DNA of 64,000 bases from the IMG/VR virus record IMGVR_UViG_3300025789_000018. One strand, given 5' to 3'. A program made the translations under genes and the position numbers. Below are positions 15,974 through 50,248 of this stretch, piece by piece. How positions within the stretch are numbered: position 1 is the first letter of the stretch; each line of letters begins with the position of its first letter. The stretch is from a virus. Its lineage: Duplodnaviria > Caudoviricetes. The notes beneath the pieces were generated by a model. It had not been told where the DNA came from. It saw only the letters and a list, made by a program, of their open reading frames with translations, and searched no databases.

Positions 15974-15991
15974 TGTACTTCCTTTAAACTC

Positions 15992-34755: not shown

Positions 34756-34761
34756 ATAACT

Positions 34762-34792
34762 TATTTATACGCGAAACGCATATAAATGTCAA
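34762..34792 (-). promoter_or_regulatory. Dual sigma70/late promoter for tmRNA
   Basis: TTGACA-N17-TATAAA, where the -10 box is also a T4 late TATAAATA. Confidence 0.75.
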
Positions 34793-35173: not shown

Positions 35174-35564
35174 TGACTTTCTCCAACCATTGCTTGATCG
35201 AACCAAACTTCAGATCAAAACACCATTCAAGACGTTCATAGCCGTAGAAGTTCAAATCATCAAGTTCATCTTCTGCATCCTCAAGGATTTCAATAGCATG
35301 TTCAACCGAAGTACCAGGAACAAGTTCCTGAATCTTCTCAATGCGGCCGACAAAAACCTTGAAGTTGTTTTCATGACGAATAGCTTCTTCTCGGTTTTGA
35401 AGATCAAGCATTTTAACCAGAAACTCAAAGTCCTTTTCAAAAGCTTCTAGAGAAAGGAAAGTGATCCCACGAGGGCGAAAGCCGTTAAGATCCTTGAAAA
35501 GATCCGAATAGATGTCACCATCATGCGAGTTGGTCAGGGCGTTGATGTCCGACAGGTTCAACAT
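35160..35564 (-). CDS. Hypothetical early protein
   Basis: ORF directly behind an early promoter cassette; SDLFKDLNGFRPR motif. Confidence 0.7.
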   Translation of the reverse strand: MLNLSDINALTNSHDGDIYSDLFKDLNGFRPRGITFLSLEAFEKDFEFLVKMLDLQNREEAIRHENNFKVFVGRIEKIQELVPGTSVEHAIEILEDAEDELDDLNFYGYERLEWCFDLKFGSIKQWLEKVNEAA

Positions 35565-35652
35565 TTCGAATCACTCCATCTCTCTGCTACATTCTCACAA
35601 TACGATGATTCGATAAAAATGTCAACCCAAAAGTTGTTTCAGTGCGTGAAAC

Positions 35653-35946
35653 TCAGAATGATGTCCACTCGTACTCGCTGTTACCTGTCTTGAAGCGAAC
35701 ATAGAGAAAGTTTGGATCCTCAGGATCAGTTCGCTCTTCCAGAATCTCAGTGATGTATGTGGTCTGCCACCAGTCGTATTCAGAGTACGACCGAGCATAG
35801 ATACTACCTACACGCATGACAACACCAACACGAGGTACTGCCGCATTTTCATACTGAATCTGATTATTATTGTCTTTCCATAGTGCCATGGACATGTTGC
35901 CCGAGTCACCAGCTTCATCTCTTGTTCTACGCAATGAATATGCCAT
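35653..35946 (-). CDS. Hypothetical protein
   Basis: ORF in tightly packed leftward cluster. Confidence 0.6.
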   Translation of the reverse strand: MAYSLRRTRDEAGDSGNMSMALWKDNNNQIQYENAAVPRVGVVMRVGSIYARSYSEYDWWQTTYITEILEERTDPEDPNFLYVRFKTGNSEYEWTSF

Positions 35947-35947
35947 A

Positions 35948-36217
35948 TTACCACTCCGTTCCTACGGTGAAGTTAGTCTTTTCGTATGCTTGGAACCAGT
36001 CAACACCATATGCAGGGCAGATATAGATTGTATCAGGTAGACCGTTGGTATCCTTCTCACCACCTTCACCACAGATGAAGTAGCGATCACCAAGCTTCTC
36101 TGCTAAAATGGTGTGGTAAACTAGTCTATAGAACTTCCGAAGTTCTTCTAGTTCGCCTTCGAATGCTTCGGTCTTAAGATTACTATCAGAAAAATGCTCT
36201 TGCATTAGTTTACCCAC
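35948..36217 (-). CDS. Hypothetical protein
   Basis: ORF in tightly packed leftward cluster. Confidence 0.6.
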   Translation of the reverse strand: MGKLMQEHFSDSNLKTEAFEGELEELRKFYRLVYHTILAEKLGDRYFICGEGGEKDTNGLPDTIYICPAYGVDWFQAYEKTNFTVGTEW

Positions 36218-36384
36218 ATCTTAAATAAAAGAGATGATAGATATATTGGCCAGATAGCCGCAGCAAATGCAGTGCCAATACACACAGGAACATCGTTTAA
36301 ACCGTCACGATATTCATCACCATGTTTTGCTTGATGATAACCACCCGACAATACTGCGATAATAATGTATAAGATAACAAACAT
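36205..36384 (-). CDS. Small membrane protein
   Basis: Two hydrophobic segments; start taken at MFVILY. Confidence 0.55.
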   Translation of the reverse strand: MFVILYIIIAVLSGGYHQAKHGDEYRDGLNDVPVCIGTAFAAAIWPIYLSSLLFKMWVN

Positions 36385-36385
36385 A

Positions 36386-36559
36386 TCATTGATTCCAAGC
36401 AAAGTCGCCATTAGTGGCATCGTAGTGTGCTGCATGATGCTTTATTACATCATTCTTCCAGGTGTTAGTAACAAGACCAAATGCGATAGCATATCCTACT
36501 AGTACACCGATTAAAAGATATACAACACAAATACCAAAGCCGCCATCATCCGTTTTCAT
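36386..36559 (-). CDS. Small membrane protein (57 aa, not in ORF track)
   Basis: MKTDDGGFGICVVYLLIGVLVGYAIAFGLV...; GGAGA RBS; fills the gap between ORFs. Confidence 0.55.
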   Translation of the reverse strand: MKTDDGGFGICVVYLLIGVLVGYAIAFGLVTNTWKNDVIKHHAAHYDATNGDFAWNQ

Positions 36560-36595
36560 TACACATTCTCCATCAATATACTTTAAGTTATCGGA

Positions 36596-36808
36596 TTACT
36601 CTCCTGGAATCCTGTACCAGTCAATGACTAGATCAAACGCATCAATGGCTTTCTGGATTTCAATATCATCTGCTTCTGAATCACCAAAGACAAACACGCT
36701 GTTATTTGCGCCTAGGTCTTGCGCAAGACTGTCTCGGGTCTCTTCAAGAGACTTCCATACAATCCGATCAAGTTGCTCATACGATAGTTCAACAGTCTTA
36801 TATGACAT
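36596..36808 (-). CDS. Hypothetical protein
   Basis: ORF coupled to its neighbours. Confidence 0.55.
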   Translation of the reverse strand: MSYKTVELSYEQLDRIVWKSLEETRDSLAQDLGANNSVFVFGDSEADDIEIQKAIDAFDLVIDWYRIPGE

Positions 36809-37062
36809 TATACTTCAACCTTTCTATAGCGGGCATATGTACCATCGGTATGTTCTACCATGATTTCAACATGATTGTCAACAGTATTTTGACCAATAAT
36901 ATGCCCGATAGGGTTATTATTATCATGTGTCATACTAGCAGCATCAAAGCCTTCATTCCAAGCAGCATCCAACGTTAGATGTCGCTTAAAGATATACACG
37001 AACATGGCCAACATTAAAACGGCTGGTAGAGACACCAGCAAGTCTGGAACACTACAAGACAT
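36808..37062 (-). CDS. Hypothetical membrane-anchored protein
   Basis: N-terminal hydrophobic helix. Confidence 0.5.
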   Translation of the reverse strand: MSCSVPDLLVSLPAVLMLAMFVYIFKRHLTLDAAWNEGFDAASMTHDNNNPIGHIIGQNTVDNHVEIMVEHTDGTYARYRKVEV

Positions 37063-37065
37063 ACT

Positions 37066-37311
37066 TCAACCTTCCATATCTACAGTTGGTACAGTTTGCC
37101 ATTCCATAGAACTAACAACTTTATCGCCTACTACACTGTTAACGTGTACTTTGATTTGGATTTCAGTTCGACCTGTATACTCTTTTTGGTTCACAGCACC
37201 TTGAGTAGTTGACACGAATCGATTCTTATAGAAACGCACAACTCGCATATTATCAACCACGGCCAATCTCCTTCTTGTATTGGGCGAGGGCGGAATGCCA
37301 GTTTCCACCAC
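37066..37311 (-). CDS. Hypothetical protein (true start possibly 37248)
   Basis: ORF in leftward cluster. Confidence 0.45.
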   Translation of the reverse strand: MVETGIPPSPNTRRRLAVVDNMRVVRFYKNRFVSTTQGAVNQKEYTGRTEIQIKVHVNSVVGDKVVSSMEWQTVPTVDMEG

Positions 37312-37519
37312 AGTGTTCTTTTACTACGCAGACAGTCTTAAGTATCCGCTTCAAAGCTTCCTCGTCAGGATCAACAGGTGGCTGCTCGTACTTCACGATC
37401 ATGCGGGCGAGGACAGTCACTGGGTCATCATATATGATGTACCAGTTGTTGCTAACCTGGTCGTTCAGCATTTTAACTGCTCGCTGGCGGGCCCACAATG
37501 GAATATTTTCATCAGTCAT
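37253..37519 (-). CDS. Hypothetical protein
   Basis: Start at MTDENIPLW with GGAG RBS. Confidence 0.55.
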   Translation of the reverse strand: MTDENIPLWARQRAVKMLNDQVSNNWYIIYDDPVTVLARMIVKYEQPPVDPDEEALKRILKTVCVVKEHCGGNWHSALAQYKKEIGRG

Positions 37520-37533
37520 TTTTATAAACTCCG

Positions 37534-37602
37534 TATAAATAGAAGTGTCTGTCGCGATACTCCAATATCCACAGACTCTAACGCTAAACAGGAGCATCAG
37601 CT
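37534..37602 (+). promoter_or_regulatory. Late promoter plus conserved structured leader (copy 2)
   Basis: TATAAATA; GTCTGT/ACAGAC stem, CGC bulge, GATA/TATC; TCTAACGCTAAACAGGAGCATCAGCTATG. Confidence 0.8.
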
Positions 37603-38124
37603 ATGAATATATATCTTTATATCAAACAATGTACACATTGTCAACTAAAATATTTTGGTAAAACATCACAATCAAATCCTTATGAATATAAAGGATCAGG
37701 AAAGAGATGGCGTAATCACCTAAAGAAACACAAAGCATCTGTTATAACACTTGAAGTTTTTTCATTTGATAATGAACAAGATGCTAAAGAGTTTGCTCTA
37801 GCGTTTTCTAGAGAACACTCAATAGTAGAATCTAAAGAGTGGGCAAATCTTATAGAAGAAGACGCACTCTGTGGTGGATCAAGACCATATAATAAAGAAG
37901 CAAACAAGAAAAACTCTAAACTGGGTGGATTTGCTAAAGCGGCAAAAGGATATCCAGTTTGGAACAAAGGTCTAAAGACTGGTCCAGATTCAGAAGAAAC
38001 TAAAAGAAAAAAGAGCGCCAGTAGAACTGGCAACCGACGCTCTTATAGAGAAGATGGAACTTGGTTTTGGATCAAACCAACTCTGCCATCTCCACAGCAA
38101 GATTCAACGCTTGGACTTTCTTAG
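37603..38124 (+). CDS. GIY-YIG (Seg-like) homing endonuclease
   Basis: IYLYIKQC..C.LKYFGKT, YKGSG..W..H.KKH, WANL..E; NUMOD3-like WNKG tail. Confidence 0.85.
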   Translation: MNIYLYIKQCTHCQLKYFGKTSQSNPYEYKGSGKRWRNHLKKHKASVITLEVFSFDNEQDAKEFALAFSREHSIVESKEWANLIEEDALCGGSRPYNKEANKKNSKLGGFAKAAKGYPVWNKGLKTGPDSEETKRKKSASRTGNRRSYREDGTWFWIKPTLPSPQQDSTLGLS

Positions 38125-39049
38125 TTTGGTTTACACCATACCAAGATGAGGCGAGTCGCGTATCTGCGCTTCGGCCGAGTACATGGTCAGTCAGATAAGT
38201 GACCGCGTTATAGGCTTGCCAGAAAGTGCCTTCTGCAAACTGTGCGCCAGGCTGTTCATGGAGTGCTTCCATCGCAAACTGTGCAGCACGGCTGTGCAAC
38301 TGACCAGCGTTCTCAATAGCAGAGTTCTTCTTATCAGAGGTCTTGGGGAAGATACGATTGAAGTATTCAACGATGTTTTCGTTGCTGTACTTCTTGGTGC
38401 CGAGAAAGGCTGCCATTTCCTTATACTTAGCAAGCTTATCACTAGCAATACCGAGAGTTTCCTTGACCATATCAGGATCAAACTCACGGCGGTGATTGAT
38501 CTTCACCATGTTAGAAGCCTTACCACCAAGGGCAAGTGTCAGAGTGTTATTGCAGACAACACGAATGGGAGTAAAACGAACGTCAATCGACTTACCATAC
38601 TGATGAGGATTGCTGAAGAGCAGGAAGCCTTCAACCTTGTCTCCACCAAACAGTTCAAATGAGTCGTTGATCTTTGCAAGACCCCAGACCATCTTGCCGT
38701 CCATCAGAGAACCAGCAGTGTGCATGGACATATCGCCAGCACCAACAAAATCATTGAAGAAGCGAAATGCTTCCACATTCTGAAGTGGATTCCAGTCATC
38801 CGTGATAACGTCAAGCACCTTGCTATCGCTGCTACGGATCAGAGCAGAGTGACCAGTGTTGATCTTCTGACCGTTATACATTGCAGGAAGAGGAACAGTG
38901 TCAACTGTCCAGTCAAGCCGAGCAGCTTCCATCATCTGTTCAGGAGTGAGGTCATTAGAGACCTTGAAGCCGAGACCGTGCCAGGGCAGATCGCCAGCGT
39001 ATGCATGACTAAAAGATCCATCAGAAAGTTGTTCAATCATATGTGCCAT
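38072..39049 (-). CDS. DUF932-family protein
   Basis: PWHGLG, PLQN.EAF.FF, TAGSL.DG..VW.LA, TPIRVVC.NTL. Confidence 0.9.
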   Translation of the reverse strand: MAHMIEQLSDGSFSHAYAGDLPWHGLGFKVSNDLTPEQMMEAARLDWTVDTVPLPAMYNGQKINTGHSALIRSSDSKVLDVITDDWNPLQNVEAFRFFNDFVGAGDMSMHTAGSLMDGKMVWGLAKINDSFELFGGDKVEGFLLFSNPHQYGKSIDVRFTPIRVVCNNTLTLALGGKASNMVKINHRREFDPDMVKETLGIASDKLAKYKEMAAFLGTKKYSNENIVEYFNRIFPKTSDKKNSAIENAGQLHSRAAQFAMEALHEQPGAQFAEGTFWQAYNAVTYLTDHVLGRSADTRLASSWYGVNQTKKVQALNLAVEMAELV

Positions 39050-39133
39050 AGTATATTTCCTTTCACAACATCATTGTTGATATATTCTTATTACAACATT
39101 TTAGAAAAAATGTCAACCAAAAAATCAATCTTA

Positions 39134-39200
39134 TATAAATAAAATGTCTGTCACGGTATCCCCATACCCACAGACTCTAACGCTAAACAGGAGCATCAGC
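39134..39200 (+). promoter_or_regulatory. Late promoter plus conserved structured leader (copy 3)
   Basis: TATAAATA; GTCTGT/ACAGAC, CAC bulge, GGTAT/ATACC; TCTAACGCTAAACAGGAGCATCAGCATG. Confidence 0.8.
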
Positions 39201-39707
39201 ATGTCTATTTATCACACACATCACATTGTCCCTCGCCATATGGGAGGCACAGACGATCCTTCAAATCTTGTCAGATTGACGATTGAAGAACACGCGGAAG
39301 CGCATAAAAAGTTGTATGAGGAATACGGCAAAGAAGAGGATAGGATTGCTTGGTTAGCCTTGTCTGGCCAGATTACTCTCTCTGAGGCATCTAAAATGGC
39401 TCATATTCTAGGTTCTTACAAAGGTGGATATGCGAAGAAACCCAACAAAGTACCAGCGCACAATAAAATAGATTGTTATTGCGTTGGTTGTAGAAAAAGA
39501 ATGAAACCTTCAGAGAAGGGTCACAAACTTTGTTTTAAAAAAGCATATGGTTTAGAGAGAACGCCAAACTCTTCTTTTTTCACATCAGAAAACGGTAAAG
39601 ATATATCTAAAAGAAACAATGCCACCTCTACTTGTCCACACTGCAATAAACAAGGTCAATATAGAGCAATGAAAAGATGGCATTTTGATAAATGTAAAGC
39701 GAAATGA
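39201..39707 (+). CDS. HNH (Mob-like) homing endonuclease (probable start 39201)
   Basis: HTHHIVPRHMGG.D...NLV.LT.EEH..AH; C-terminal CPHC...KRWHF.KCK. Confidence 0.85.
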   Translation: MSIYHTHHIVPRHMGGTDDPSNLVRLTIEEHAEAHKKLYEEYGKEEDRIAWLALSGQITLSEASKMAHILGSYKGGYAKKPNKVPAHNKIDCYCVGCRKRMKPSEKGHKLCFKKAYGLERTPNSSFFTSENGKDISKRNNATSTCPHCNKQGQYRAMKRWHFDKCKAK

Positions 39708-39713
39708 TTCGCT

Positions 39714-39959
39714 TTAAAATGTCAATGAAAAGTTTTCGTCATTCAAAATAAATGCGTGATCGTCGGTGTCGCCAGGAAACTCTTCAAACCAAACGATAGG
39801 GATAAACTCGTATCCGTCATGTTCGACACCGATCTTGCGAATCGTTACCCTCTTATCAAGAGTAGGACCTGGAATATCATACCCAGTTTTCTCATCAACC
39901 CACTCATCAACGTTGCAAAGCAAAGTTTGACCAACTTCAATGTTCTTAATCATAATCAA
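39714..39959 (-). CDS. Hypothetical early protein
   Basis: Follows an early promoter cassette. Confidence 0.6.
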   Translation of the reverse strand: MIMIKNIEVGQTLLCNVDEWVDEKTGYDIPGPTLDKRVTIRKIGVEHDGYEFIPIVWFEEFPGDTDDHAFILNDENFSLTF

Positions 39960-40017
39960 ATCACCTTTCTCACTGTCTATATTTTCATCATAACAGATTC
40001 GCGATAAATGTCAACCA

Positions 40018-40872
40018 CTATTTGCAGCAGGTGACTTTCGCCATCGACATCCACTTGGGGCTGTTCATGTTGCGGATTCCTGCAACCTTGAGAACCATAC
40101 GCAGCGAAAGTTCACGCATGGTGTTTTGATGCGTTTCAATGAAAGACACAACATCGACCTGTGCGGCCTTTGCGATACCTTCACGATCAAGCATACCCTT
40201 ATCAAGGACTTGCTTGATGCGGATCATATAGTCACGCTTAGTCTTCATCGTAAGATCGATATAATGCGAACGAGAAATCATAGCGTTCATATGAGGAGCC
40301 AACTTGTGGCCTTTGCCAATCATAGCATCAAAGTCAAGATTGGTAATGAAAATGATAGTACCTTCAAACTCAAAACTCTTGGGCATGACAGTCATATCGG
40401 TTTCATCGATCAGAGTACCTTCCGTCATGTAACTAATACGACGGACTTTATTGCTGTCACAAGCAGCTTTAAGAAGATTGAGTGAAATATCATCAAAGAA
40501 GATAGCATCGGCATCATCGAAAACCAAAACTTTGCCTTGATCTTTATGTTGAAAGAGCAAGCGATACAAAGATGGCGCTTTCAGATGACCCTTAACAATC
40601 GTATGATTTTCTTCGGAAGCATCCCATCCTTTGAGTGCTTCCTCTACGGTAAAAGACTTACCAAGACCAGCAGGACCAGATACGATCAAAGCGCGAATAT
40701 CACCCTTGATCGCAGCATGAGTCATTTCATCCAGAATATCAAAACGTTCGAGGATGCGTTCTGAAATCTCAGCATCAGTCTCGACAATCTTTTGAATGTT
40801 GACTTCGCTGATATCGCGAATCTTGACCTTAGAAGTTTTACGAAACCCAGCTTTAGGAACACCACGAGGCAT
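40018..40872 (-). CDS. AAA+/P-loop ATPase conserved in T4-like phages
   Basis: Walker A SGPAGLGKS, Walker B LVFDD.D, IIFITN, SRS. Confidence 0.8.
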   Translation of the reverse strand: MPRGVPKAGFRKTSKVKIRDISEVNIQKIVETDAEISERILERFDILDEMTHAAIKGDIRALIVSGPAGLGKSFTVEEALKGWDASEENHTIVKGHLKAPSLYRLLFQHKDQGKVLVFDDADAIFFDDISLNLLKAACDSNKVRRISYMTEGTLIDETDMTVMPKSFEFEGTIIFITNLDFDAMIGKGHKLAPHMNAMISRSHYIDLTMKTKRDYMIRIKQVLDKGMLDREGIAKAAQVDVVSFIETHQNTMRELSLRMVLKVAGIRNMNSPKWMSMAKVTCCK

Positions 40873-40929
40873 AACGAATCACTTTCTCTCTCTGACTACT
40901 TTTTCATCATAGCTGATTCGATAAAAATG

Positions 40930-41421
40930 TCAACCTTTTATACCAAGCGCCTTGCGACCAGGAGACATGTAATCTTTTTCAACATTTGTTTTATATGCAT
41001 GACAGCACTTGCAAAGTGTCTGACAGTTATCTTCAGTGTTGTGTGATGGATTGCCATCTTTGTGATCGACATCAAGCATACCATCCCAGATGATCGTGGT
41101 CGTGCAAGTAAATCCCAATCGACCGTCGATGTTTTCACAATAAGTTTTACGAAACTTACGGTAAGGATGAAAAGAGTTCGTAAACTGAGTTACATTATCA
41201 AACCCTGCTTTCTTTGCCATAACCTGCAGGATATTATCGAGACCATGCTGACTTGCTGTGTGTTTACTATGACATTTAGCGCAACGTTTCCGAAAGATTG
41301 GATATCCATCTTTTCGATATCGACCACAGTGTTGGCCAGTTTTGTTGCAACCATCAACGACGCACTTTGGCCTTTCGCTAATGTGAATAATCTTCTTTAT
41401 GACACTAGAACTAGCATTCAT
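40930..41421 (-). CDS. Zinc-binding HNH nuclease-like protein
   Basis: CxxxxC/CxxCH and LDVDHKDGN..HN...N.QTLCKCCH..KT. Confidence 0.8.
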   Translation of the reverse strand: MNASSSVIKKIIHISERPKCVVDGCNKTGQHCGRYRKDGYPIFRKRCAKCHSKHTASQHGLDNILQVMAKKAGFDNVTQFTNSFHPYRKFRKTYCENIDGRLGFTCTTTIIWDGMLDVDHKDGNPSHNTEDNCQTLCKCCHAYKTNVEKDYMSPGRKALGIKG

Positions 41422-41489
41422 AACGAATCACTTTCTCTCTCTGACTACTTTTTCATCATAGCTGATTCGATAAAAATGTCAAGCTTGCA

Positions 41490-42353
41490 TCAAAAGTTTT
41501 TTATCAAACATTCGGTGACTTTCACCTTTTGACCATCTTTGGCTCCTCGGCCTGCGGTGTATGTCACATCAAAAAGCAAAGGAGAAAACGAATCGATCAG
41601 TTTTGATTCGAAAAAGTTGTCATAATGATACTTGTTAGCCATCGCAACAAAAGCGCCAGCATTCGCTGCATTGTTCATCATATTGCACAGACGTTCTTGA
41701 TCATAATCATCAAAAGCATTTTTTGTGTACTTCGTAAAGCAATCGCGATATGGAGGATCAAGAAACACATACGTGTCTTGATTGACATATTTGTCAAGGG
41801 TTTCGAAATCGTTTGAATGTAGATTCAGGTTCTGCGAAAAGATATGAAAGGCATTAATGACATCAACATCATAGATTTTTTCACGTTCGTTCAGTAGACC
41901 ACATGGAGTACCAAACTTGTTGTTAGTGTTCTTATTGATTTGCCATATGCCATTAAAAGATGTTTTTAGTAGTGAAAATAGCAATCCAGCCCGCTCGGCG
42001 TCGCTTAGATGATTATATGCATGAATGTTACGTTGTTCATAATAGAATGTTTTTCTGTCTTCTTTGTTCTTCGAAATGTACAAAGACTGATACTGATCAA
42101 CCACCTCAAGAAACTCTTTCTTGTTTGTTTTGATCTGTTTATAGATGTTAATGATATCTTCGTTATAATCGTTCACAAAGAACTCTGTGTTGGGATATCG
42201 ATCAAAGATCCACATACAGACTGCACCAGTACCAAAAAACGGATCGACAAACCTATCAAACTTACTTCCTGGCCAGAAGTCTGATCCATACTTCGATTTC
42301 ATTTTAGTCTTAGCACCAGCCCAACGAAAAAGTGGCTTCAAATCTTTCATCAT
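41490..42353 (-). CDS. Dam-family (D12, alpha-class) N6-adenine DNA methyltransferase
   Basis: LFRWAG.K, motif I DPFFGTGAV, motif IV FLDPPY. Confidence 0.92.
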   Translation of the reverse strand: MMKDLKPLFRWAGAKTKMKSKYGSDFWPGSKFDRFVDPFFGTGAVCMWIFDRYPNTEFFVNDYNEDIINIYKQIKTNKKEFLEVVDQYQSLYISKNKEDRKTFYYEQRNIHAYNHLSDAERAGLLFSLLKTSFNGIWQINKNTNNKFGTPCGLLNEREKIYDVDVINAFHIFSQNLNLHSNDFETLDKYVNQDTYVFLDPPYRDCFTKYTKNAFDDYDQERLCNMMNNAANAGAFVAMANKYHYDNFFESKLIDSFSPLLFDVTYTAGRGAKDGQKVKVTECLIKNF

Positions 42354-42850
42354 ATCTCCAATAGTGATAGTGTTTTATCCATAATAGAAACGATTTCATC
42401 TAAAGTAAAACCGTGCTCGGACATATGAAACTTAAAGTTTTTAGGATACATAATAGTATACTGAGAGGCCAATCTGCCTAATGGTCCATGTGGTACAACA
42501 CCAGAGCCAGAACAAAACGTTACGTATTTGACATTCTGAGATTGCCATTTCGCAAAGTCTGCGTTTTTAACCCATCGCTCTTGAGCGTTTCCTCGCATGT
42601 CTTGTTTCTTTGCTTCGAAGACTGCTACGAGTGTACCATCACTATTATACCAAGCACCACCATCTGGAGCAAAACCCATAACTTTATCTGTTTTGAATAT
42701 CTCTATCTTCTTTTGCTTGCTCATACGTTTCACACACTTCAGGTGTGGATGATTCTTGGCAACAATATCGATAGCAAGCTTACATGTATTGTCTAGAGAC
42801 TTAGACAGAGTATCAAAAGCTGTAGTACCAACTTGTATGCCTCGACTCAT
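42350..42850 (-). CDS. EcoRI/MunI-like PD-(D/E)XK restriction endonuclease-like protein
   Basis: PDGG...VFEAKKQ...GNAQER..KN parallels EcoRI PDGG...AEAKHQ...GNAIERSHKN; 4-nt overlap with the methylase. Confidence 0.65.
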   Translation of the reverse strand: MSRGIQVGTTAFDTLSKSLDNTCKLAIDIVAKNHPHLKCVKRMSKQKKIEIFKTDKVMGFAPDGGAWYNSDGTLVAVFEAKKQDMRGNAQERWVKNADFAKWQSQNVKYVTFCSGSGVVPHGPLGRLASQYTIMYPKNFKFHMSEHGFTLDEIVSIMDKTLSLLEI

Positions 42851-42910
42851 ATCGAATCACCTTATATATCATTTACTACATTACTGATAATATAAGGATT
42901 AGAAAAAATG

Positions 42911-43597
42911 TCAAGTGGTTTTTTGAGGTACCTCGCCTGGTTGCTGAGATTTAATCCATTGCTGACCGACTCTATTTTTCACTGGACCTGTAGCGATCTT
43001 GCGAATCGTTTTGTGAACACCGTGGAGAAGATCCTCGCTGGCATTATTGTTATCAACAATATGCATGTTCTCATTACCGAAGTGATCCTGAAAGTGGCCG
43101 ATGTTGTCCTGGACTTGATTCCACATACGTTCAACGTGATGTGATGGCAATGATCGTTCACGCTCCATATTGCGCTGCTGAGCCACTGGAAGCGAGGTAT
43201 TGACGAACACCATATGTGTATCGTATCCCTGATTGCGTAGCGCCTCCGACTGCGCCTTGATCTTGGCCGCATCTTTCCCAGTACCATCGATTACCATACC
43301 TAGCTTACCTTGTTGATATAGCTTCTGGCGCTTGTTGGTGAGGTCTTTTGCTTTTGCTCTGACTACATCACGTTCTGCTGTTTCATGTTCAGGCATAGTT
43401 GGATCCAAGCCATGTTCTTTCATGCCCTTCTCAAACAGATCATCTGAGTTGACCATTTTGAAGCCTAAGCCGCCCATGGTTTTCTTTGTCACATAAGATT
43501 TGCCAGAACCAGGACCACCAGCAAGAAAGATTGCTTTTAGTTTTGCTGGATCATTAACGCCTTCTTCAAGGTCAACAAAGTCATTGAAACGTAGCAT
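42911..43597 (-). CDS. P-loop kinase (zeta-toxin/AAA_33-like), late-expressed, probable head-packaged protein
   Basis: AIFLAGGPGSGKS, VIDGTG, FV.TSL.VA..RN..R.R; TATAAATA at 43616-43623; N-terminal MLRFNDFVDLEE. Confidence 0.75.
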   Translation of the reverse strand: MLRFNDFVDLEEGVNDPAKLKAIFLAGGPGSGKSYVTKKTMGGLGFKMVNSDDLFEKGMKEHGLDPTMPEHETAERDVVRAKAKDLTNKRQKLYQQGKLGMVIDGTGKDAAKIKAQSEALRNQGYDTHMVFVNTSLPVAQQRNMERERSLPSHHVERMWNQVQDNIGHFQDHFGNENMHIVDNNNASEDLLHGVHKTIRKIATGPVKNRVGQQWIKSQQPGEVPQKTT

Positions 43598-43623
43598 GGA
43601 AACTCCTGTTTTTTATATTTATA

Positions 43624-44235
43624 TTATTTCTTATGCATGACAGCCATGGTCTGCTTCTGCTTCATTAGATCATCATAATCTTTTTCATAAGATTTTGATA
43701 CAGAATCAGGAGATGCTTTCCAGTCGTTTCTGAGATTATAAACATCACGATCAGTGACATAGTTCTCATCATCTTTAGGATCAAGATGAACTGCTTCATC
43801 AGACTTAGGATCATATGCATGAACGTTAATGCTAGGATGCTTGGATGCTTTGTCCCAAACACGTCTAGCGCCATGGGATTGATTCCCTGACGCTAGTATT
43901 TTATTGTGATTTAAGATTAGATGTTGATATAGATGTTCAGCACCTAAGGAGTCTTTGTTTGCATCTAGAAAGTCTACATGCTCTGCACCTTTGGTTCTAT
44001 ACTTTTTAGTAGATAGTGCTATGTTAACTTTGTTTGTTTTAGGGTCAGCGACATAGTATGTGTTTTCTTTTGTGGACAATGGTTTTTGATATACGTGATG
44101 GCCATTCTTAAGGATTCCAATATGTTTGGCCTTTTTAGGTACATCTTTACCAAGTTCATCATGAAAAACATCGCCTACATTGACGCCATTTTGCATGACT
44201 TCTTGTAGACTTCTAATGTCTTTAAACCGAATCAT
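43624..44235 (-). CDS. Late-expressed hypothetical protein, probable head-packaged
   Basis: Late promoter 44262-44269; same RBS (AGGAGTTTCCATG) as its neighbour; MIRFKDIRSLQE N-terminus. Confidence 0.6.
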   Translation of the reverse strand: MIRFKDIRSLQEVMQNGVNVGDVFHDELGKDVPKKAKHIGILKNGHHVYQKPLSTKENTYYVADPKTNKVNIALSTKKYRTKGAEHVDFLDANKDSLGAEHLYQHLILNHNKILASGNQSHGARRVWDKASKHPSINVHAYDPKSDEAVHLDPKDDENYVTDRDVYNLRNDWKASPDSVSKSYEKDYDDLMKQKQTMAVMHKK

Positions 44236-44261
44236 GGAAACTCCTAAACATTGTTTAGAAG

Positions 44262-44333
44262 TATTTATATAAATAGATGTGGTTCACGATGTTGACGCAT
44301 CTAACCACACTATCGCTAAACAGGAGCAACAGC
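44262..44333 (+). promoter_or_regulatory. Palindromic bidirectional late promoter TATTTATATAAATA plus conserved leader (copy 4)
   Basis: GTGGTT/AACCAC stem, CAC bulge, GATG/CATC; CTATCGCTAAACAGGAGCAACAGCATG. Confidence 0.8.
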
Positions 44334-45002
44334 ATGTCTATTTATCTCTATGTCAAACAATGTCCCCACTGTGGGCTAAAGTATTTTGGTAAAACAGAAC
44401 AAGATCCATATACTTACAACGGATCAGGAAAGATGTGGATTCCACACATCAAGAAACACAAAGTCACACCAAAAACAATAGAACTATATGAGTTTTCTGA
44501 TAAAGAGGAAGCAAAAAAGTTTGCTATAAACTTTTCTAAAGAAAACAGAATAGTAGAATCTAAAGAGTGGTTCAATCTTGTTATAGAACAGTGTGACGGT
44601 GGAGACACCTCGGCTTCTCCAGCATTTCAACGATGGATTGATCAGATAGACATGGCTGGTGAAAAAAATCCTATGTATGGTAGATCAGCAATAACTGAAC
44701 AAAATCTTCGTTGGTATACTAACGGTGAGAACAATCTATATCTTCCTGTCGGCACAGAGATGTTGGGTTATCGCCGAGGAAGAACTATAAAACATAGAAA
44801 ACCACATACACAAGAACATAAAGACAAGATATCTAAAGCAAATACGGGAAAGAAAAGTGTAAATCAAAAAACGTGCATATCACCTGATGGAAATATATAC
44901 GAATCTATCACACAAGCCGCAAACGCACATTCAATGACTGTATCGGCGTTCAGACATAAAATCGAACATAAAGAAAAACATTTGGGTTGGATTATTGTTT
45001 GA
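44334..45002 (+). CDS. GIY-YIG (Seg-like) homing endonuclease (probable start 44334)
   Basis: IYLYVKQC..C.LKYFGKT, Y.GSG..W..H.KKH; GEKNPMYG and HTQEHKDKIS (NUMOD3); C-terminal HTH-like segment. Confidence 0.85.
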   Translation: MSIYLYVKQCPHCGLKYFGKTEQDPYTYNGSGKMWIPHIKKHKVTPKTIELYEFSDKEEAKKFAINFSKENRIVESKEWFNLVIEQCDGGDTSASPAFQRWIDQIDMAGEKNPMYGRSAITEQNLRWYTNGENNLYLPVGTEMLGYRRGRTIKHRKPHTQEHKDKISKANTGKKSVNQKTCISPDGNIYESITQAANAHSMTVSAFRHKIEHKEKHLGWIIV

Positions 45003-45555
45003 CAATCTTATAAATGTCTTTCCAGTATTTTACCAAGACGGCTTTGCCTTTATAATCATGACTGTGTTCGTGTTCAACCAAAATACCTTTTAGACCAAGA
45101 CTATCGCACAAATCGACGTTCTCTGGTTTGTCCTCGATGAAGTATATTCCGCTGCCCTTATAGGGAGCAAGTGCTTCATCTTTATCTGCGCCACATTCCA
45201 GGCAGACGACACTTTCAATCGCTTCGCCGAAGTACCGCTTCAGGTTTTGTTCACGAAGCCGAGCAGCGGCAGGATCCAGACTCAAGCTGGTAATGACGCG
45301 AATCTGTACGCCATGTTCTTCATAGAGTTTGCGAACGTATTTCACAGCATCCCGAAGAGGAGGCAGAAAGCCACATGCCGCACTTTCGTTGAAATCACGA
45401 ACAAGTTGTTTGCTTACGACCTTTTCGATTCCATAGCGAAGATCAATGCCATAGGCATCGCTCCGAACCCGCTTGAACCCTTTGCGCTGCATCCACTGGT
45501 CGAAACCAAACTCCCAGTCTAGAAGAACGCCGTCGCAATCGCTCAAAATCAACAT
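44992..45555 (-). CDS. HAD-superfamily 5'(3')-deoxyribonucleotidase-like protein
   Basis: LSDCDGVLLDW, ITS, FIEDK..N. Confidence 0.85.
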   Translation of the reverse strand: MLILSDCDGVLLDWEFGFDQWMQRKGFKRVRSDAYGIDLRYGIEKVVSKQLVRDFNESAACGFLPPLRDAVKYVRKLYEEHGVQIRVITSLSLDPAAARLREQNLKRYFGEAIESVVCLECGADKDEALAPYKGSGIYFIEDKPENVDLCDSLGLKGILVEHEHSHDYKGKAVLVKYWKDIYKIVKQ

Positions 45556-45610
45556 TTCATTCCCAATCTCACTCGCTACATTTCTTACTATATATGATTC
45601 GATTTAAATG

Positions 45611-46336
45611 TCAAGCAGCAATGCGCAAAACATTGCCGCCAGGACCATTGATCGGGCGAGAAAGATTGACACGATCACCAGCAGACTGACCGCTGCGATA
45701 TGCTGCACCATCACGAATGGTGGTAGTACCATATTTCTTCTTAAGACGCAAGCCAAGTTCACGATATGCCTGATTGACAACCTGATTCTTCAGAACAATC
45801 AAAGCATTGCTGCCGCCTCGTGCAGCTTTTTCTTCGCCGTTCATCTGAGCCTTCATTTCGTTCAGACGACGACCAATACGCATTGCCATACCAGTGGTAA
45901 ACGAACTGGTAGCACCTTTCTTGCTATATGCTCCCTTATATTCAGGAGTCTTCTTGAACTTTGCCAGTTCAGTTGCCATAGCCGACAGGATAATATCATA
46001 AAGATACTTCACCATCAGAAGATCGCTTTCTTGACCAAAGAAGCAATACTTCAGAGTAGCACCACGATTGGTCCACACCTTACAATCGGTAAAGCCAGCG
46101 ATATCCGAGAGAGCGTAATAGACGCCGTTGCGGACCTTGCTGCCAATATCAATCTTCAAAGTGTCACAAACTTCATCACGAAGTTCGACCTCGTTCATGG
46201 ACAGATTATATTGCGAGAGCAACTTACCCACCATGTTGATTGCGGTAAGTGCTTCTTCTTCCGAGCAGCCATTCTTGACGGTCTTAGCCGAGAGAGCGCG
46301 AATACGAGCCTTGATCTTGCTTTGGATATCAGTCAT
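45611..46336 (-). CDS. DUF2786-type protein
   Basis: KIRAL.AK....G.S.EEA..A......L..YNL; SF..G...RI..RL. Confidence 0.75.
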   Translation of the reverse strand: MTDIQSKIKARIRALSAKTVKNGCSEEEALTAINMVGKLLSQYNLSMNEVELRDEVCDTLKIDIGSKVRNGVYYALSDIAGFTDCKVWTNRGATLKYCFFGQESDLLMVKYLYDIILSAMATELAKFKKTPEYKGAYSKKGATSSFTTGMAMRIGRRLNEMKAQMNGEEKAARGGSNALIVLKNQVVNQAYRELGLRLKKKYGTTTIRDGAAYRSGQSAGDRVNLSRPINGPGGNVLRIAA

Positions 46337-46403
46337 AACGAATCATTCCTTCTCACTAGCTATATTTTCATCATAAACGAATCGGGATAAATGTCAAGCG
46401 ATC

Positions 46404-46616
46404 TTATCGCTCCAGAATGACATAATCACCAAAGTGACGATCAAAAACTTCCAGAAGGTTTTCAAAAACTTCCATCATTTCCGAAACAATAGCTTTACCA
46501 TCAAGCCCGAGTTGCTTTGCATACTGGCGGGCATAACCCATGAGGACAAATGCGTTACCTTCAGGACCACTCAGGTCGATAACGATTTCAGACTTGGGTT
46601 GCTTCTCACGAATCAT
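46404..46616 (-). CDS. Hypothetical protein
   Basis: IDLSGPEGNAFVLMG motif seen in small phage proteins. Confidence 0.65.
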   Translation of the reverse strand: MIREKQPKSEIVIDLSGPEGNAFVLMGYARQYAKQLGLDGKAIVSEMMEVFENLLEVFDRHFGDYVILER

Positions 46617-46750
46617 AACGTATCCTTTCGATTAATATTCAAGTTGTGCGCCAGGAGGTGGAAGTTCTGGATAATACCAATCGGGAACCAAAGCCCGCAC
46701 CCAGACGCAATCAGATAGACGCTTTATCCAAACAAAATGATAACCTTCCA

Positions 46751-46996
46751 TCATGAAGAAACTTTTTCGTGAACCATCGCGATGTGCTTACACTTACCAC
46801 GAAAGTTGAAACCAATGCAATCACATACCCAACCACGTTCGACCATGGTTGTGTTATATTGCTTGCCTTTAGAGTTTACGTATGGCCAGGTGAAGCCAAC
46901 CAGATGGTGTTTCTCACTGAAGTTAATACCATCAAGAGCAAGAGGTGTCCGATAGGGGCTAACACCAGGAACAAACATGATTAACGTTCCGCACAA
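46751..46996 (-). CDS. SWIM-type zinc finger protein
   Basis: CDC.GF.FRGKCKH. Confidence 0.7.
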   Translation of the reverse strand: MCGTLIMFVPGVSPYRTPLALDGINFSEKHHLVGFTWPYVNSKGKQYNTTMVERGWVCDCIGFNFRGKCKHIAMVHEKVSS

Positions 46997-47169
46997 GCAA
47001 CAAAATCGTCCAAAAGATATTGGAGCCGATCAAGCTTGATCTGCAACCCGGCAATCCTTTCGCCAGTCAACTCTTCACGCTCTGCTGCTCGGAGAGTAGA
47101 TTCCATTCCAGCGACCAACTTGCGCATCGCACCAATCAGTATTTGTTCATCATCATAAAACATAATCAA
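46981..47169 (-). CDS. Hypothetical protein
   Basis: GGAGA RBS; packed ORF. Confidence 0.5.
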   Translation of the reverse strand: MIMFYDDEQILIGAMRKLVAGMESTLRAAEREELTGERIAGLQIKLDRLQYLLDDFVACAER

Positions 47170-47175
47170 ATCTCC

Positions 47176-47532
47176 TTACGCAGCCAACTTGTAGGGTTGA
47201 TCCCACTTACCAGCATGAACATACGAGTACCAACCCACATCAAAGTAGTCGGTCATAATATCGCTGTTATCATGATTGCCGTCGTTCATAGCAACACGAA
47301 GTTCCTTCAAGAACTGAAGTTCCTTGCCCTGATAGTTGCTTTCCAGATGATAAAAGTGCATCTGACTATAACCGTTTTCGTTCTGAGCGAACTTCAGAGG
47401 ACCTTCTTTCAAGGTCAGAATCAGAGTGCTGTGATGGCGAACCGACAGACTACCCTTCATATTGTACTTCTTGAGGATCGCTTTGACCTTGGGAGCGATA
47501 GCAGCTTTCTTTTCCTGAGACATGTAAGCCAT
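47176..47532 (-). CDS. Hypothetical early protein
   Basis: Behind a promoter cassette; DNSDIMTDYFDVGWY motif. Confidence 0.7.
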   Translation of the reverse strand: MAYMSQEKKAAIAPKVKAILKKYNMKGSLSVRHHSTLILTLKEGPLKFAQNENGYSQMHFYHLESNYQGKELQFLKELRVAMNDGNHDNSDIMTDYFDVGWYSYVHAGKWDQPYKLAA

Positions 47533-47597
47533 AACGAATCAACCCTTCTCTCTGTCTATATTCTTACCATACACGATTCGGGATAAATGTCAAGCGG

Positions 47598-47996
47598 TCA
47601 TCGCCTCATTTTAGAAATATCTTCCGCGTCTTCCTGACTGAAGACAGGTACCAGATTGCTCTTATGCATCGTGGCGATGCCGAGCAGCTTGTCGCCCGTA
47701 TATGTGTTAGGCGCTTTGGCAAACGTCACACCGATGCCATCACCAGTCTCATACTTGGGCGCATTGCGAACGTATGTGGAAGCTTCCATACCAGTCTTAA
47801 CGGTCTTTGTTTTGTATGCGGCATTGCCTTGTCGATATGCAACATACTCTTGGAACGTCTTGGTTTTTGATCCAAGCCGCTTCATCTGCTTGTTATAGTC
47901 TACCCAATCTTGAGCATACTTCGCCGTGTTTAGTTGCGGCTTGCGTTTCTTAGTTGAGTTTGTGGTATAAGCAGGACCTAGGAGATGCATTGTCAT
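47598..47996 (-). CDS. Hypothetical protein conserved in T4-like phages
   Basis: YTGDKLLGIATMHKSNLVPVFS...DISKMRR. Confidence 0.7.
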   Translation of the reverse strand: MTMHLLGPAYTTNSTKKRKPQLNTAKYAQDWVDYNKQMKRLGSKTKTFQEYVAYRQGNAAYKTKTVKTGMEASTYVRNAPKYETGDGIGVTFAKAPNTYTGDKLLGIATMHKSNLVPVFSQEDAEDISKMRR

Positions 47997-48228
47997 ATTA
48001 AGCAGCCATCAGAATGAAACAAGTTGCCAGAATGTAAAGATAGGATTTAGTAGTCATGGCGATCCCTGATAGACAACGTGATGTATGAAGCAATATATGC
48101 CATCATCGGGACAGCGATGTCGGCTCGGTCAAGTGTTCCCTTAACATAGTCAGGAATATAAAAACCAATTCCACAGAACAGTGCAATACCTAGTGCGAAC
48201 AGGATACGAGACAACATTTTAACTCTCC

Positions 48229-48435
48229 TTAAATTCCGAATTCAGCGGCATAATCTGCATCTAGCCGAATATTCCCATAACCACGTTGAATCAACCTATT
48301 TCGGACATTTTTTGCAGCGCATCGAAACTCGTCAACAGTGTAATGAATCCCCCACTTTGATCCGCGTCCAGTGATACGAGTGTCATTCACATAAACTGCG
48401 TTCTTGTCGGTTACGGTTACTTTTAGGATTTTCAT
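48229..48435 (-). CDS. Hypothetical protein
   Basis: GGAGA RBS. Confidence 0.55.
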   Translation of the reverse strand: MKILKVTVTDKNAVYVNDTRITGRGSKWGIHYTVDEFRCAAKNVRNRLIQRGYGNIRLDADYAAEFGI

Positions 48436-48446
48436 TTAACTTCTCC

Positions 48447-48614
48447 TCAGCGATAAATGTTGCGCTTGAGTTCAACTTCAAACTCTTCTCGGCCGACGGT
48501 GCACCGATTGCCAGTCACTTCTTCATAGATCATGACTTCTTCCATCAGATTTCCAAGGTCAACACCTTTAGCAATGAAAGTCCCATTGTGATTACGAGCA
48601 ACAAACATTTTCAT
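48447..48614 (-). CDS. Hypothetical early protein
   Basis: Start placed at the promoter-cassette ATG. Confidence 0.55.
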   Translation of the reverse strand: MKMFVARNHNGTFIAKGVDLGNLMEEVMIYEEVTGNRCTVGREEFEVELKRNIYR

Positions 48615-48669
48615 GATTCGAATCTCTCTCACTGACTACTTTTTCATCATAACAGAATCAGGAATAATG

Positions 48670-49092
48670 TCAAGCAGCGATTTTTTCGTAAACACCTTCG
48701 CCGTTGCTGAAACTGCCGATCTTGGCATAGCAGTTGAAAGCCTTGTTCAACACCTTTTCAAAGTTGGGTGCAATCCGATTGACCCAAGCATGGGCAAGAT
48801 TCTGCAAAGAAATCTCATCGCTGTAGTAGCAATCGTACTCTTTGGCGACCAGAGAAATGCTGGCCAGCCCACAGTATTCCGAAACTACAACTTGAGCGAA
48901 CCTGTTTTCCAGAATGGCACGAAGTTCACGCCCAATCCACTTGTCTTCGTTGTCAAACGATTTGTAGGCATCCTTGACGATGCTCTGCACATCATCTACA
49001 AAGTCATCCCATTCCCAGGAGTCCTGAATGTACGAAACATCAACATAGACCACAGCGCCGGCGCCACTGGCATAATCAACTGAACGTCCCAT
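48670..49092 (-). CDS. Hypothetical early protein
   Basis: Behind a promoter cassette. Confidence 0.65.
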   Translation of the reverse strand: MGRSVDYASGAGAVVYVDVSYIQDSWEWDDFVDDVQSIVKDAYKSFDNEDKWIGRELRAILENRFAQVVVSEYCGLASISLVAKEYDCYYSDEISLQNLAHAWVNRIAPNFEKVLNKAFNCYAKIGSFSNGEGVYEKIAA

Positions 49093-49149
49093 AGCGAATC
49101 AACCTTTCTCAATGACTACATTCTTACCATAGACGATTCTGGATAAATG

Positions 49150-49350
49150 TCAAGAGTGCATTTGGATATCTTTGAGGTGTGGCGCGATCTGCTTGGCAGA
49201 ATATTGCACCTCGTTGATTTCAAAGAACCAGCGACCAGACTCTTCTCGTTTCAGTTTCAGTGCTTCACCTTCACGAAATGGCGAGATACCCCAAGTCCAT
49301 GGGCGACCTGTTTGAAGTTCGAATGCACCACCTGAAAGCTTCGTGATCAT
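49150..49350 (-). CDS. Hypothetical protein
   Basis: GGAGA RBS. Confidence 0.55.
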   Translation of the reverse strand: MITKLSGGAFELQTGRPWTWGISPFREGEALKLKREESGRWFFEINEVQYSAKQIAPHLKDIQMHS

Positions 49351-49361
49351 AACAAATCTCC

Positions 49362-49646
49362 TTAACCGACAACTTCATCAATCACACTGACCAAATCTTC
49401 GACATAGATGCCTTCGAGTTTCTTGACATACTTTACATCAATGCCACGAATCTTGAAGAAGTCAATGTCGTAAAGGTCTTTGCCTTCGTTGTACTTGACG
49501 TAAACATAGCCCTTCCACTTGGCCATCCCGCTGGATTTGAACTTCAGCCCATCGCCCATGTTCACGAGGTCTTTAGCACCCCAAGCCCACAGTGCGCGAG
49601 GATCAATGGCTTTGATCTGGTCACGAATGATAACTGCGATGCTCAT
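49362..49646 (-). CDS. Hypothetical early protein
   Basis: Behind a promoter cassette. Confidence 0.65.
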   Translation of the reverse strand: MSIAVIIRDQIKAIDPRALWAWGAKDLVNMGDGLKFKSSGMAKWKGYVYVKYNEGKDLYDIDFFKIRGIDVKYVKKLEGIYVEDLVSVIDEVVG

Positions 49647-49711
49647 TGCGAATCACCTTTTCTCATTGACTACTTTCTCAATGTACACGATTCGCCAAAA
49701 ATGTCAACCAC

Positions 49712-49774: not shown

Positions 49775-50248
49775 TCAGAAGCGGAAGGTCACCGTACCAG
49801 CCGCACCATTGTTCTTGACTGCGCCAAGATCGGTGTGGGTGTACTGAGCACCAACCGAAACATGACCAATGACGTTAACGTCAAGACCTGCGGTAGCGCG
49901 AAGACCCTGGAGATTGTGTGCTTCTAGATCACGGAGGTTGTCATAACCTAGACCAGCATACACTAGAGTATGTGGAGTTACTTCATAGCCAAGACGACCA
50001 CCAACGTTAACATCGGTGCGGTCAAATACGTTGTCTAGACCAGCTTCAACGCCTACGGTAACAGGACCAACAAGCTTGCTGTCATAACCAGCTTCAACAC
50101 CATAAGTGAATGAACGGTTTGATGGGATTGCAGTGATGTCCTGATAGCCGACAACGCCAGTTACACGAGGGCCGACAAAGCTGTCTGCCATTGCAGGAGT
50201 AGCAGCAACAGCGGTAAGAGCCGCGAGGGCAAACATAAGATTCTTCAT
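49775..50248 (-). CDS. Outer-membrane beta-barrel protein (porin-family/OmpA-like membrane domain)
   Basis: Sec signal peptide (AMA/D), alternating amphipathic beta strands, C-terminal aromatic ...VTFRF. Confidence 0.85.
   Translation of the reverse strand: MKNLMFALAALTAVAATPAMADSFVGPRVTGVVGYQDITAIPSNRSFTYGVEAGYDSKLVGPVTVGVEAGLDNVFDRTDVNVGGRLGYEVTPHTLVYAGLGYDNLRDLEAHNLQGLRATAGLDVNVIGHVSVGAQYTHTDLGAVKNNGAAGTVTFRF

Follow-up and report, generated by a model that had tools for sequence, protein, structure and literature searches.

A repeated early promoter cassette with fixed GANTC boxes in an aquatic T4-like phage, a candidate docking site for GcrA

What recognizes a GANTC site that recurs at one and the same place in promoter after promoter of a phage? 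The question is raised by a 64-kb stretch of DNA from a tailed virus (IMG/VR record IMGVR_UViG_3300025789_000018), here called the window. The initial annotation had pointed out ten leftward sigma70-type promoters with GANTC at a fixed distance from the -35 hexamer, and had proposed that GcrA, from the host or from the phage itself, fires the early genes from these promoters according to the GANTC methylation set by CcrM. Scanning the window for TTGACA-N8-GANTC recovered all ten sites, with GANTC starting at 35607, 39996, 40915, 41464, 45596, 46379, 47575, 48655, 49135 and 49689. These were the only matches in the window, and all were on the minus strand. In dinucleotide-preserving shuffles of the window the same pattern occurred 0.18 times on average and at most twice, and the positional enrichment, for which the annotation had suggested a check, was thus clear (10 versus 0.18); it was also found in relatives of the phage. 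A separate scan with the sigma70 consensus ranked these promoters best among the sigma70-like sites between 34 and 51 kb.

The recount on the plus strand gave eight GATTC and two GAATC, as reported before, and seven of the ten sites fitted YGAKTCG on one strand, the other three being one base off (AGATTCG at 39996, TGATTCT at 48655 and CGATTCT at 49135). The claim that the flanking spacer bases vary was borne out by the alignment, in which the G, A, T and C of the box were invariant and the neighboring bases differed. Five promoters had been named as controls (34787, 36877, 39111, 42909 and 60211), and none of them has GANTC in the spacer; the promoter at 42909, however, is itself a member of the family formed by the ten.

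The ten promoters are copies of one promoter-leader cassette of about 65 nucleotides (nt), not independent promoters, and 11 copies of this cassette span 35.5-49.7 kb of the window. Read from its upstream end, the cassette opens with the -35 hexamer TTGACA; the spacer that follows is T-rich at first, then has five variable positions, the invariant G-A-(A/T)-T-C and three more variable positions. After it come a -10 hexamer of the form TAnnnT, a conserved purine-rich leader and, usually, a second GANTC directly before the start codon. TTGACA is perfect in all ten box-bearing copies, and the -10 hexamers are imperfect versions (TATGAT, TATGGT, TATAGT, TATTGT and TACATT). Nine copies have a 16-bp spacer and one has a 17-bp spacer, and the gap from the spacer box to the -10 hexamer is 3 nt, once 4 nt. 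The spacer box typically reads CGAATC on the sense strand, that is, GATTCG on the template strand. The second box, TGATTCG in the 5′ leader, is present in eight of the ten cassettes and also in the 42909 member, which lacks the spacer box; in most copies it lies 39 nt downstream of the spacer box, usually in the opposite orientation. When transcription is assumed to start 7 nt after the -10 hexamer, the spacer box is centered at -18 (once -19) and the leader box at about +22. TGATTCG occurs 22 times in the window, 20 of them in the early region, and about 12 are inside cassettes, the rest being close to chance level. The cassettes drive small genes, most of which defy annotation; the products are a P-loop protein, a DUF2786/DUF7168 protein and otherwise ORFans.

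Is the box itself selected, or merely carried along with the repeat? A set of 25 distinct promoters was assembled from the window and related contigs by anchoring only on the -35, -10 and leader motifs. The box was present at N8 in 19 of them and at N9 in two more, and because the N9 members have a 17-bp spacer, the 3-nt gap to the -10 hexamer is kept. The five columns before and the three after the box were variable, whereas the G, A, T and C of the box were fixed. Members without the box have a near-consensus -10 hexamer, TATTAT or TATATT, and this stronger hexamer looks like compensation. Among the ten spacer boxes of the window, nine fitted YGAKTCK and seven YGAKTCG, compared with 32% and 12% of the other 197 GANTC sites (p ~ 3 × 10-4 and ~ 3 × 10-5, values that are valid only if the copies are independent). 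Scanning IMG/VR for the two-box cassette gave 86 stretches, which collapsed to 50 unique cassettes; the 8-mer that precedes the box took 33 different forms. In these 50 cassettes the central base was A in 36, T in 13, G in one and C in none, making the box effectively GAWTC, and the 5′ flank of the leader box was T in 46. These results argue for selection on the box.

The form of the box also indicates the level at which it is read. TGATTCG was present in all eight leader-bearing cassettes, and leader boxes were found either as TGATTCG or inverted as CGAATCA; in the spacer, GAATC was flipped to GATTC in two of the ten copies with the consensus flanks kept. Since the 7-mer stays intact upon inversion, the pattern speaks for a reader of double-stranded DNA and not for a signal in RNA or translation. 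A hairpin between the two boxes was considered and rejected; we found no stable or conserved one, the folds differing from copy to copy with a stability no better than that of shuffles (z from -0.8 to +0.9).

How widely the box occurs was determined in relatives of the source phage. Many freshwater metagenome runs, none of those listed being an RNA run, contain the window, which has a G+C content of about 39-40% and encodes T4-superfamily functions, including a class Ia ribonucleotide reductase and baseplate and fiber proteins. Its gp61-type primase is 49% identical to cyanomyovirus primases, and its core proteins are 25-60% identical to those of isolate phages from many host classes; no near relative of the window was found among isolate phages. 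The IMG/VR contig G001 is 95-99% identical over the early region and has nine of the ten sites, and the fragments G002-G006 provided new spacer variants, all of which keep the box. G007, a genome of 171,566 bp (CheckV 100% complete, 42% G+C), aligns to the window in a few segments only, at about 68-70% identity, and has 14 box-bearing promoters versus 0.03 in shuffles. The pattern TTGAC[AT]-N8/9-GANTC-N3-TANNNT was counted 9 times in the window, 10 times in G001 and 14 times in G007 (shuffles, ~0.03-0.05). Outside this group, spacer GANTC was found in only 2 of 58 sigma70-like sites of 14 distant loci (92.8 kb) that encode a P-loop protein 48-67% identical to that of the window, and the promoter of the orthologous P-loop gene in these loci is without the box. 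Enrichment of the box was absent from Cr30, phiM12, phiN3, S-RIM8, Melnitz and HTVC008M, phiM12 and phiN3 having one chance match each. Because distant relatives and isolate phages are without it, the box is regarded as an innovation of one clade.

Two of these isolate phages differ in other respects. The early intergenic regions of Cr30 (1-50000) contain TTTACT-N17-TATAGT promoters followed by a conserved TCATTATAAGG leader, with no fixed GANTC, and GANTC is not depleted in the Cr30 genome (~5 per kb). In HTVC008M (Pelagibacter phage, NC_020484.1), GANTC is depleted about ten-fold, with 43 sites in 147 kb, compared with ~3 per kb in Melnitz, G007 and the window. All 43 sites read GGANTC on one strand, and none is without a flanking G or C; a 7-bp form of the site thus seems to be strongly selected against in that phage.

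Comparison of the window with G001 indicated that the cassettes are also places of rearrangement. The differences between the two start or end at cassettes (35632, 39956-40028, 47594 and 48646/49661), and the mosaic breakpoint at 47594 adjoins the cassette at 47575. G001 is without window positions 48646-49661 (~1 kb), which hold three open reading frames (ORFs) and the cassette at 49135, and its junction (37881-37960) is a chimeric cassette, g37881, composed of the promoter half of the cassette at 49689 and the leader half of that at 48655. This junction is a clear case in which recombination between promoter cassettes removed or added a segment. A plus-strand ORF that interrupts the row of early genes (39144-39707) and a 97-amino acid (aa) ORFan on the minus strand directly upstream of the cassette at 35607 (35653-35946) are also absent from G001, and are further insertions or deletions at cassette borders. 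In these respects the cassettes behave like the promoter early stem-loop (PeSL) elements, mobile cassettes whose behavior was described in RB49/phi1 and other T4-like phages (PMC2839356, PMC4122927).

Which protein would read such a box? GcrA, a non-canonical activator that works on sigma70 and reads GANTC methylated by CcrM, is conserved together with CcrM across nearly all Alphaproteobacteria. The preferred context of GcrA is TGATTCG, more broadly YGAKTCK, and the sites of its direct regulon form a narrow cluster at about -20 in addition to those at +2 to +30 (Haakonsen 2015, PMC4647560). Wu 2023 gives the windows as -20 ± 1, -30 ± 2 and +5 to +30, and describes GcrA as a monomer that is anchored on sigma region 2 and extends its DNA-binding domain to either side of the -10 hexamer (PMC9976885). 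The PcsM scaffold has GAATC at -22 to -18, and the main PmipZ site is TGAGTCG at +12 (PMC9976885). The phage cassettes and the GcrA promoters of Caulobacter (PMC4647560, PMC5887438, PMC9976885) are alike in that they are of sigma70 type with GANTC in the spacer at about -20 and/or in the first 30 transcribed bases, in the extended context TGATTCG/YGAKTCK, which holds for both spacer and leader boxes of the cassette, and in the orientation, GAATC upstream and GAKTC downstream on the sense strand, as in PcsM and PmipZ. Relative to the predicted start site, the boxes (-18/-19 and about +22) agree with the positions of GcrA sites. Single sites without dyad symmetry, common to cassettes and GcrA promoters, fit a monomeric reader on sigma region 2, as do the inverted boxes with their flanks intact, and the box appears to be placed where a cofactor tethered to sigma70 would bind. 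The A/T center of the box is compatible with the GAWTC specificity of some marine CcrM homologues.

GcrA is favored since it is the sole known factor that combines the sequence preference of the box, the two positions and the orientation rule. Docking of a GcrA-type protein at the cassette boxes is therefore the best-supported reading, to which we give a probability of about 0.45. The earlier proposal stands at the level of motif, position and orientation; its variant with a phage-borne GcrA found no support in seven relatives. For GcrA docking we infer four things: a protein bound to the box, the identity of this protein as GcrA, methylation of the sites and an alphaproteobacterial host. The phage would add GcrA boxes to promoters with a weak -10 hexamer and thereby capture GcrA-loaded host RNA polymerase for its early genes, and recombination between cassettes would spread and shuffle the promoter module. 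That efficient firing needs both GANTC methylation and GcrA, so that an aquatic T4-like clade would have wired nearly its whole early programme to a host reader of N6-methyladenine (m6A), is a stronger statement that we hold to be doubtful. That the methylation of the DNA on entry, or the cell cycle of the host, gates the early promoters is speculative; if the stronger statement is true, an infection would succeed or fail with the methylation that the virion DNA brings from the host before, and with the point in the cell cycle that the new host has reached.

Several observations weigh against GcrA docking. In geometry, the spacer-box center at -18 is 1 bp outside the modeled -20 ± 1, and the box is 3 nt from the -10 hexamer, compared with 5 nt in the solved complex of GcrA, RNA polymerase and PcsM. 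In G007, 6 of the 14 boxes read AGATTCG and miss the 5′ Y, which only seven fit. Cr30, which is T4-like and infects Caulobacter, and the Sinorhizobium phages are without the box. The window shows no depletion of GANTC (218 observed versus 249 expected), unlike alphaproteobacterial genomes. The p-values given above presuppose more independence than there is, since common descent and recombination link the copies, and the sense-oriented leader box partly overlaps a Shine-Dalgarno sequence of the GGTGAT type. As CcrM is limited to part of the cell cycle in Caulobacter and a GANTC methylase of the phage itself is unlikely, methylation of the virion DNA is doubtful; GcrA binding is strictly methylation-dependent in A. 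tumefaciens (PMC13687562). GcrA is alphaproteobacterial, and the phage, known from freshwater metagenomes, may have a host of another kind. Relatives of the P-loop protein were found, by the genome_contigs scan, on contigs in metagenome-assembled genomes (MAGs) of Bacteroidetes, Gammaproteobacteria and Actinomycetes, one contig being 132 kb long; the three are probably phage contigs mis-binned into bacterial MAGs, and the binning of related contigs is inconsistent. Finally, the hosts of the wider phage group include cyanobacteria, SAR11 and the non-alphaproteobacterial OM43, and the phages of all three carry a permuted transfer-messenger RNA (tmRNA).

Genes for the reader and the writer were sought in the phage group. 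Pfam searches found neither GcrA (PF07750) nor a CcrM-type methylase (PF01555) in G001-G007, and a regular-expression scan with an approximate pattern found no gene like GcrA or CcrM in the window. Since neither reader nor writer was found even in the complete genome G007, the host must be the source of any GcrA or CcrM. The methylase of the window (41490-42353) is of the D12 class with DpnM, a GATC enzyme, as its nearest solved relative, and a phage-encoded GANTC writer was set aside as unlikely on account of this DpnM/Dam-like type. A 166-aa ORF, for which neither a Pfam nor a PDB match was found, overlaps and precedes the methylase gene, and both are behind the 42909 cassette (41490-42914). 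CtrA boxes (TTAA-N7-TTAA) were not enriched in the window (1 observed versus 3.1 expected). Two other contigs that match the two-box cassette, G008 (15820-16164) and G011 (26975-27331), carry a PF01555-type (beta-class) methylase of ~350 aa.

An alphaproteobacterial host is weakly hinted at by the DUF2786/DUF7168 gene, which matches only phages of alphaproteobacteria, and by the tail protein, whose best isolate matches include the phiM12 group and Cr30. The permuted tmRNA was tried as a host marker and rejected, as it is also carried by Melnitz (OM43; 45984-46436), HTVC008M (SAR11; 145120-145461) and G007 (14720-15093). The tmRNA tags are AHNDNDFAAVRMSA in the window, ANDNYVPVDYALAA in Melnitz, ANFNEYALAA in HTVC008M and ANDNVAFAGYALAA in G007, and the tag of the window has an atypical end, RMSA. 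Its two-piece gene (34471-34792, minus strand) has a TTGACA-N17-TATAAA promoter without the box and served as a comparison promoter.

Could the box be bound by a factor unrelated to GcrA and m6A, the likeness to the GcrA motif being a coincidence? Candidates are an early activator encoded by the phage or delivered with the virion, a repressor for early shut-off, or another sigma70-associated protein of the host. A factor carried by the clade would fit a box that is selected, read on double-stranded DNA and clade-specific, relatives with 57-67% protein identity being without it, and the early region has many ORFans of no known function; the uncertain host, the 2-bp offset from the solved GcrA geometry and the half of the G007 boxes without the 5′ Y point the same way. 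However, the exact 7-mer optimum of GcrA together with both position windows and the orientation rule is unlikely to arise by chance, and no DNA-binding gene that co-occurs with the box was identified. A middle promoter of the MotA type was rejected because TTGACA is perfect in all copies, which likewise rules out sigma appropriation by MotA/AsiA, and MerR-type activation, which uses an over-long 19-20-bp spacer and a dyad operator, is spoken against by the 16-17-bp spacers and the single 5-7-bp site with no dyad symmetry. We regard an unrelated factor as rather unlikely, though as the next most probable reading after GcrA docking.

It is also conceivable, at a lower probability, that no dedicated factor exists, the box and leader being passengers of a mobile cassette homogenized by recombination (concerted evolution of the PeSL type), or that they act intrinsically, the DNA shape of the spacer tuning promoter strength and the leader serving as a ribosome-binding region. 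The cassettes are indeed repeated and recombinogenic, two copies are identical, the chimeric cassette and the breakpoints match PeSL (PMC2839356, PMC4122927), and the leader TGATTCG overlaps the Shine-Dalgarno-like GGTGAT. Mere passengers would hardly stay constant while the neighboring columns diverged into at least 33 8-mers, nor would they keep their distance to the -10 hexamer in spacers of different length (N8 in those of 16 bp, N9 in those of 17 bp) or flip with the flanks kept. In RNA, an inverted leader box, CGAATCA, cannot do what the sense-oriented one does, members without the box have the stronger, compensation-like -10 hexamer, and related phages use sigma70-like early promoters without any box; we consider a factor-free box quite unlikely. 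Very improbable is the notion that a nuclease or recombinase of the phage acts on the paired inverted GATTCG boxes and so drives the shuffling of cassettes. Homing endonuclease genes are numerous in the genome, GIY-YIG genes such as the SegE-like one at 50324-50743 are found close by, and the breakpoints of recombination lie inside cassettes, but the position of the box is fixed to the -10 hexamer and not to the breakpoints, some promoters have a single box, homologous recombination between repeats of 60-70 nt requires no special site, and nothing indicates a nuclease of such specificity.

The individual cassettes, all on the minus strand, are as follows. The cassette at 35607 (35562-35625) has the -35 hexamer at 35620-35625, the spacer box GAATC at 35607-35611 (antisense TGATTCG), the -10 hexamer TATTGT at 35597-35602 with the 17-bp spacer, and leader TGATTCG over 35568-35572, and its gene, with ATG at 35562-35564, encodes a 134-aa ORFan. 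In the cassette at 39996 (39951-40014), the -35 hexamer is at 40009-40014, the box at 39996-40000 (antisense AGATTCG) and the -10 hexamer TATGAT at 39987-39992; the leader box is degenerate (GATTTG), and ATG at 39951-39953 starts an ORFan of ~79 aa. The cassettes at 40915 (40870-40933) and 41464 (41419-41482) are identical across 64 nt from the -35 hexamer to ATG. The former has its -35 hexamer at 40928-40933, box at 40915-40919, -10 hexamer TATGAT at 40906-40911 and leader TGATTCG at 40876-40880, and drives, from ATG at 40870-40872, the 284-aa P-loop protein (phrog_1250); the latter has the -35 hexamer at 41477-41482, the spacer box at 41464-41468 and the leader box at 41425-41429, and drives a 163-aa ORFan from ATG at 41419-41421. 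The 42909 member (42848-42914), with TAATC in place of the spacer box, has the -35 hexamer at 42909-42914, the -10 hexamer TATTAT at 42887-42892 and two leader sites one helical turn apart, TGATTCG at 42854-42858 and TGAGTCG at 42844-42848; its genes are the 166-aa ORF and the D12-class methylase described above.

At higher coordinates, the cassette at 45596 (45553-45614) has the -35 hexamer at 45609-45614, the box at 45596-45600 (antisense TGATTCG), the -10 hexamer TATAGT at 45587-45592 and no leader box, and its gene encodes a 187-aa ORFan. The box is flipped in the cassette at 46379 (46334-46397; -35 hexamer at 46392-46397), where GATTC at 46379-46383 reads CGATTCG on the sense strand, the -10 hexamer is TATGAT, leader TGATTCG is at 46340-46344 and the gene encodes the 241-aa DUF2786/DUF7168 protein. 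For the cassette at 47575 (47530-47593), the -35 hexamer is at 47588-47593, the box at 47575-47579 (CGAATCG), the -10 hexamer TATGGT and leader TGATTCG at 47536-47540, followed by a gene for a 118-aa ORFan. The other flipped box, GATTC at 48655-48659 (sense TGATTCT), belongs to the cassette at 48655 (48612-48673), which has the -35 hexamer at 48668-48673, the -10 hexamer TATGAT, two abutting leader sites at 48620-48624 and 48615-48619 (CGAATCA, antisense TGATTCG) and a gene for an ORFan of ~55 aa. The cassette at 49135 (49090-49153) combines the -35 hexamer at 49148-49153, the box at 49135-49139 (antisense CGATTCT), the -10 hexamer TATGGT and leader TGATTCG at 49096-49100 with a gene for a 140-aa ORFan. 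Finally, the cassette at 49689 (49644-49707) has the -35 hexamer at 49702-49707, the box at 49689-49693 (CGAATCG), the -10 hexamer TACATT, leader TGATTCG at 49650-49654 and a gene for a 94-aa ORFan; a hairpin with a T-run, resembling a terminator, closely precedes it. Beyond this cassette are a gene for an 8-stranded outer-membrane beta-barrel protein (OMP_b-brl; 49775-50248, minus strand), whose close relatives are only metagenomic or phage-like, and, adjoining it, the SegE-type endonuclease gene, also on the minus strand. For two further early ORFs, phage homologues were not found.

To our knowledge, GcrA is so far known only from the control of chromosomal cell-cycle genes and replicons, and no description of phage promoters built around a GcrA site was found in the literature searched. 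If the boxes are GcrA sites, this would be the first virulent phage to use an epigenetic reader of its host as a promoter element, and the cassette would predict an alphaproteobacterial host of uncultured phages from sequence alone. The cassettes would also offer a compact natural two-box promoter for studying how GcrA acts from both sides of the -10 hexamer. If another factor reads the boxes, they would be a promoter element at about -18 that is new for T4-like phages. In both cases, the concept of mobile early promoters developed for PeSL now also covers aquatic T4-like phages.

The feature is best filed as a combination of two known kinds, the promoter architecture of the GcrA type and the mobile early promoters of the PeSL type. 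Transcription of mobile elements is coupled to adenine methylation in the promoter in Mu mom (OxyR/Dam), P1 cre and IS10; those cases concern GATC and Dam in a few single promoters, whereas here the whole early programme would use sites of the GANTC type. The middle promoters of T4 (MotA/AsiA) likewise have an extra fixed element and a factor that acts through sigma70, but the MotA box replaces the -35 hexamer at about -30, while the cassette keeps a perfect TTGACA and has its extra element at about -18. With the PeSL of T4-type phages (PMC2839356, PMC4122927), the cassettes share a repeated sigma70-like early promoter joined to a Shine-Dalgarno sequence, the location before small ORFans in a plastic early region, and the ends of insertions, deletions and replacements between close relatives that fall in cassettes, a chimeric cassette marking a deletion. 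They differ in that a conserved integral stem-loop is not present, only the cassette at 49689 and a few others having an upstream hairpin, and in the two GATTCG boxes, which the PeSL descriptions do not mention. Compared with GcrA promoters, most of which have one site each, the phage boxes almost always have A or T as the center base, and the cassette unites the upstream and the downstream site in one promoter and multiplies it.

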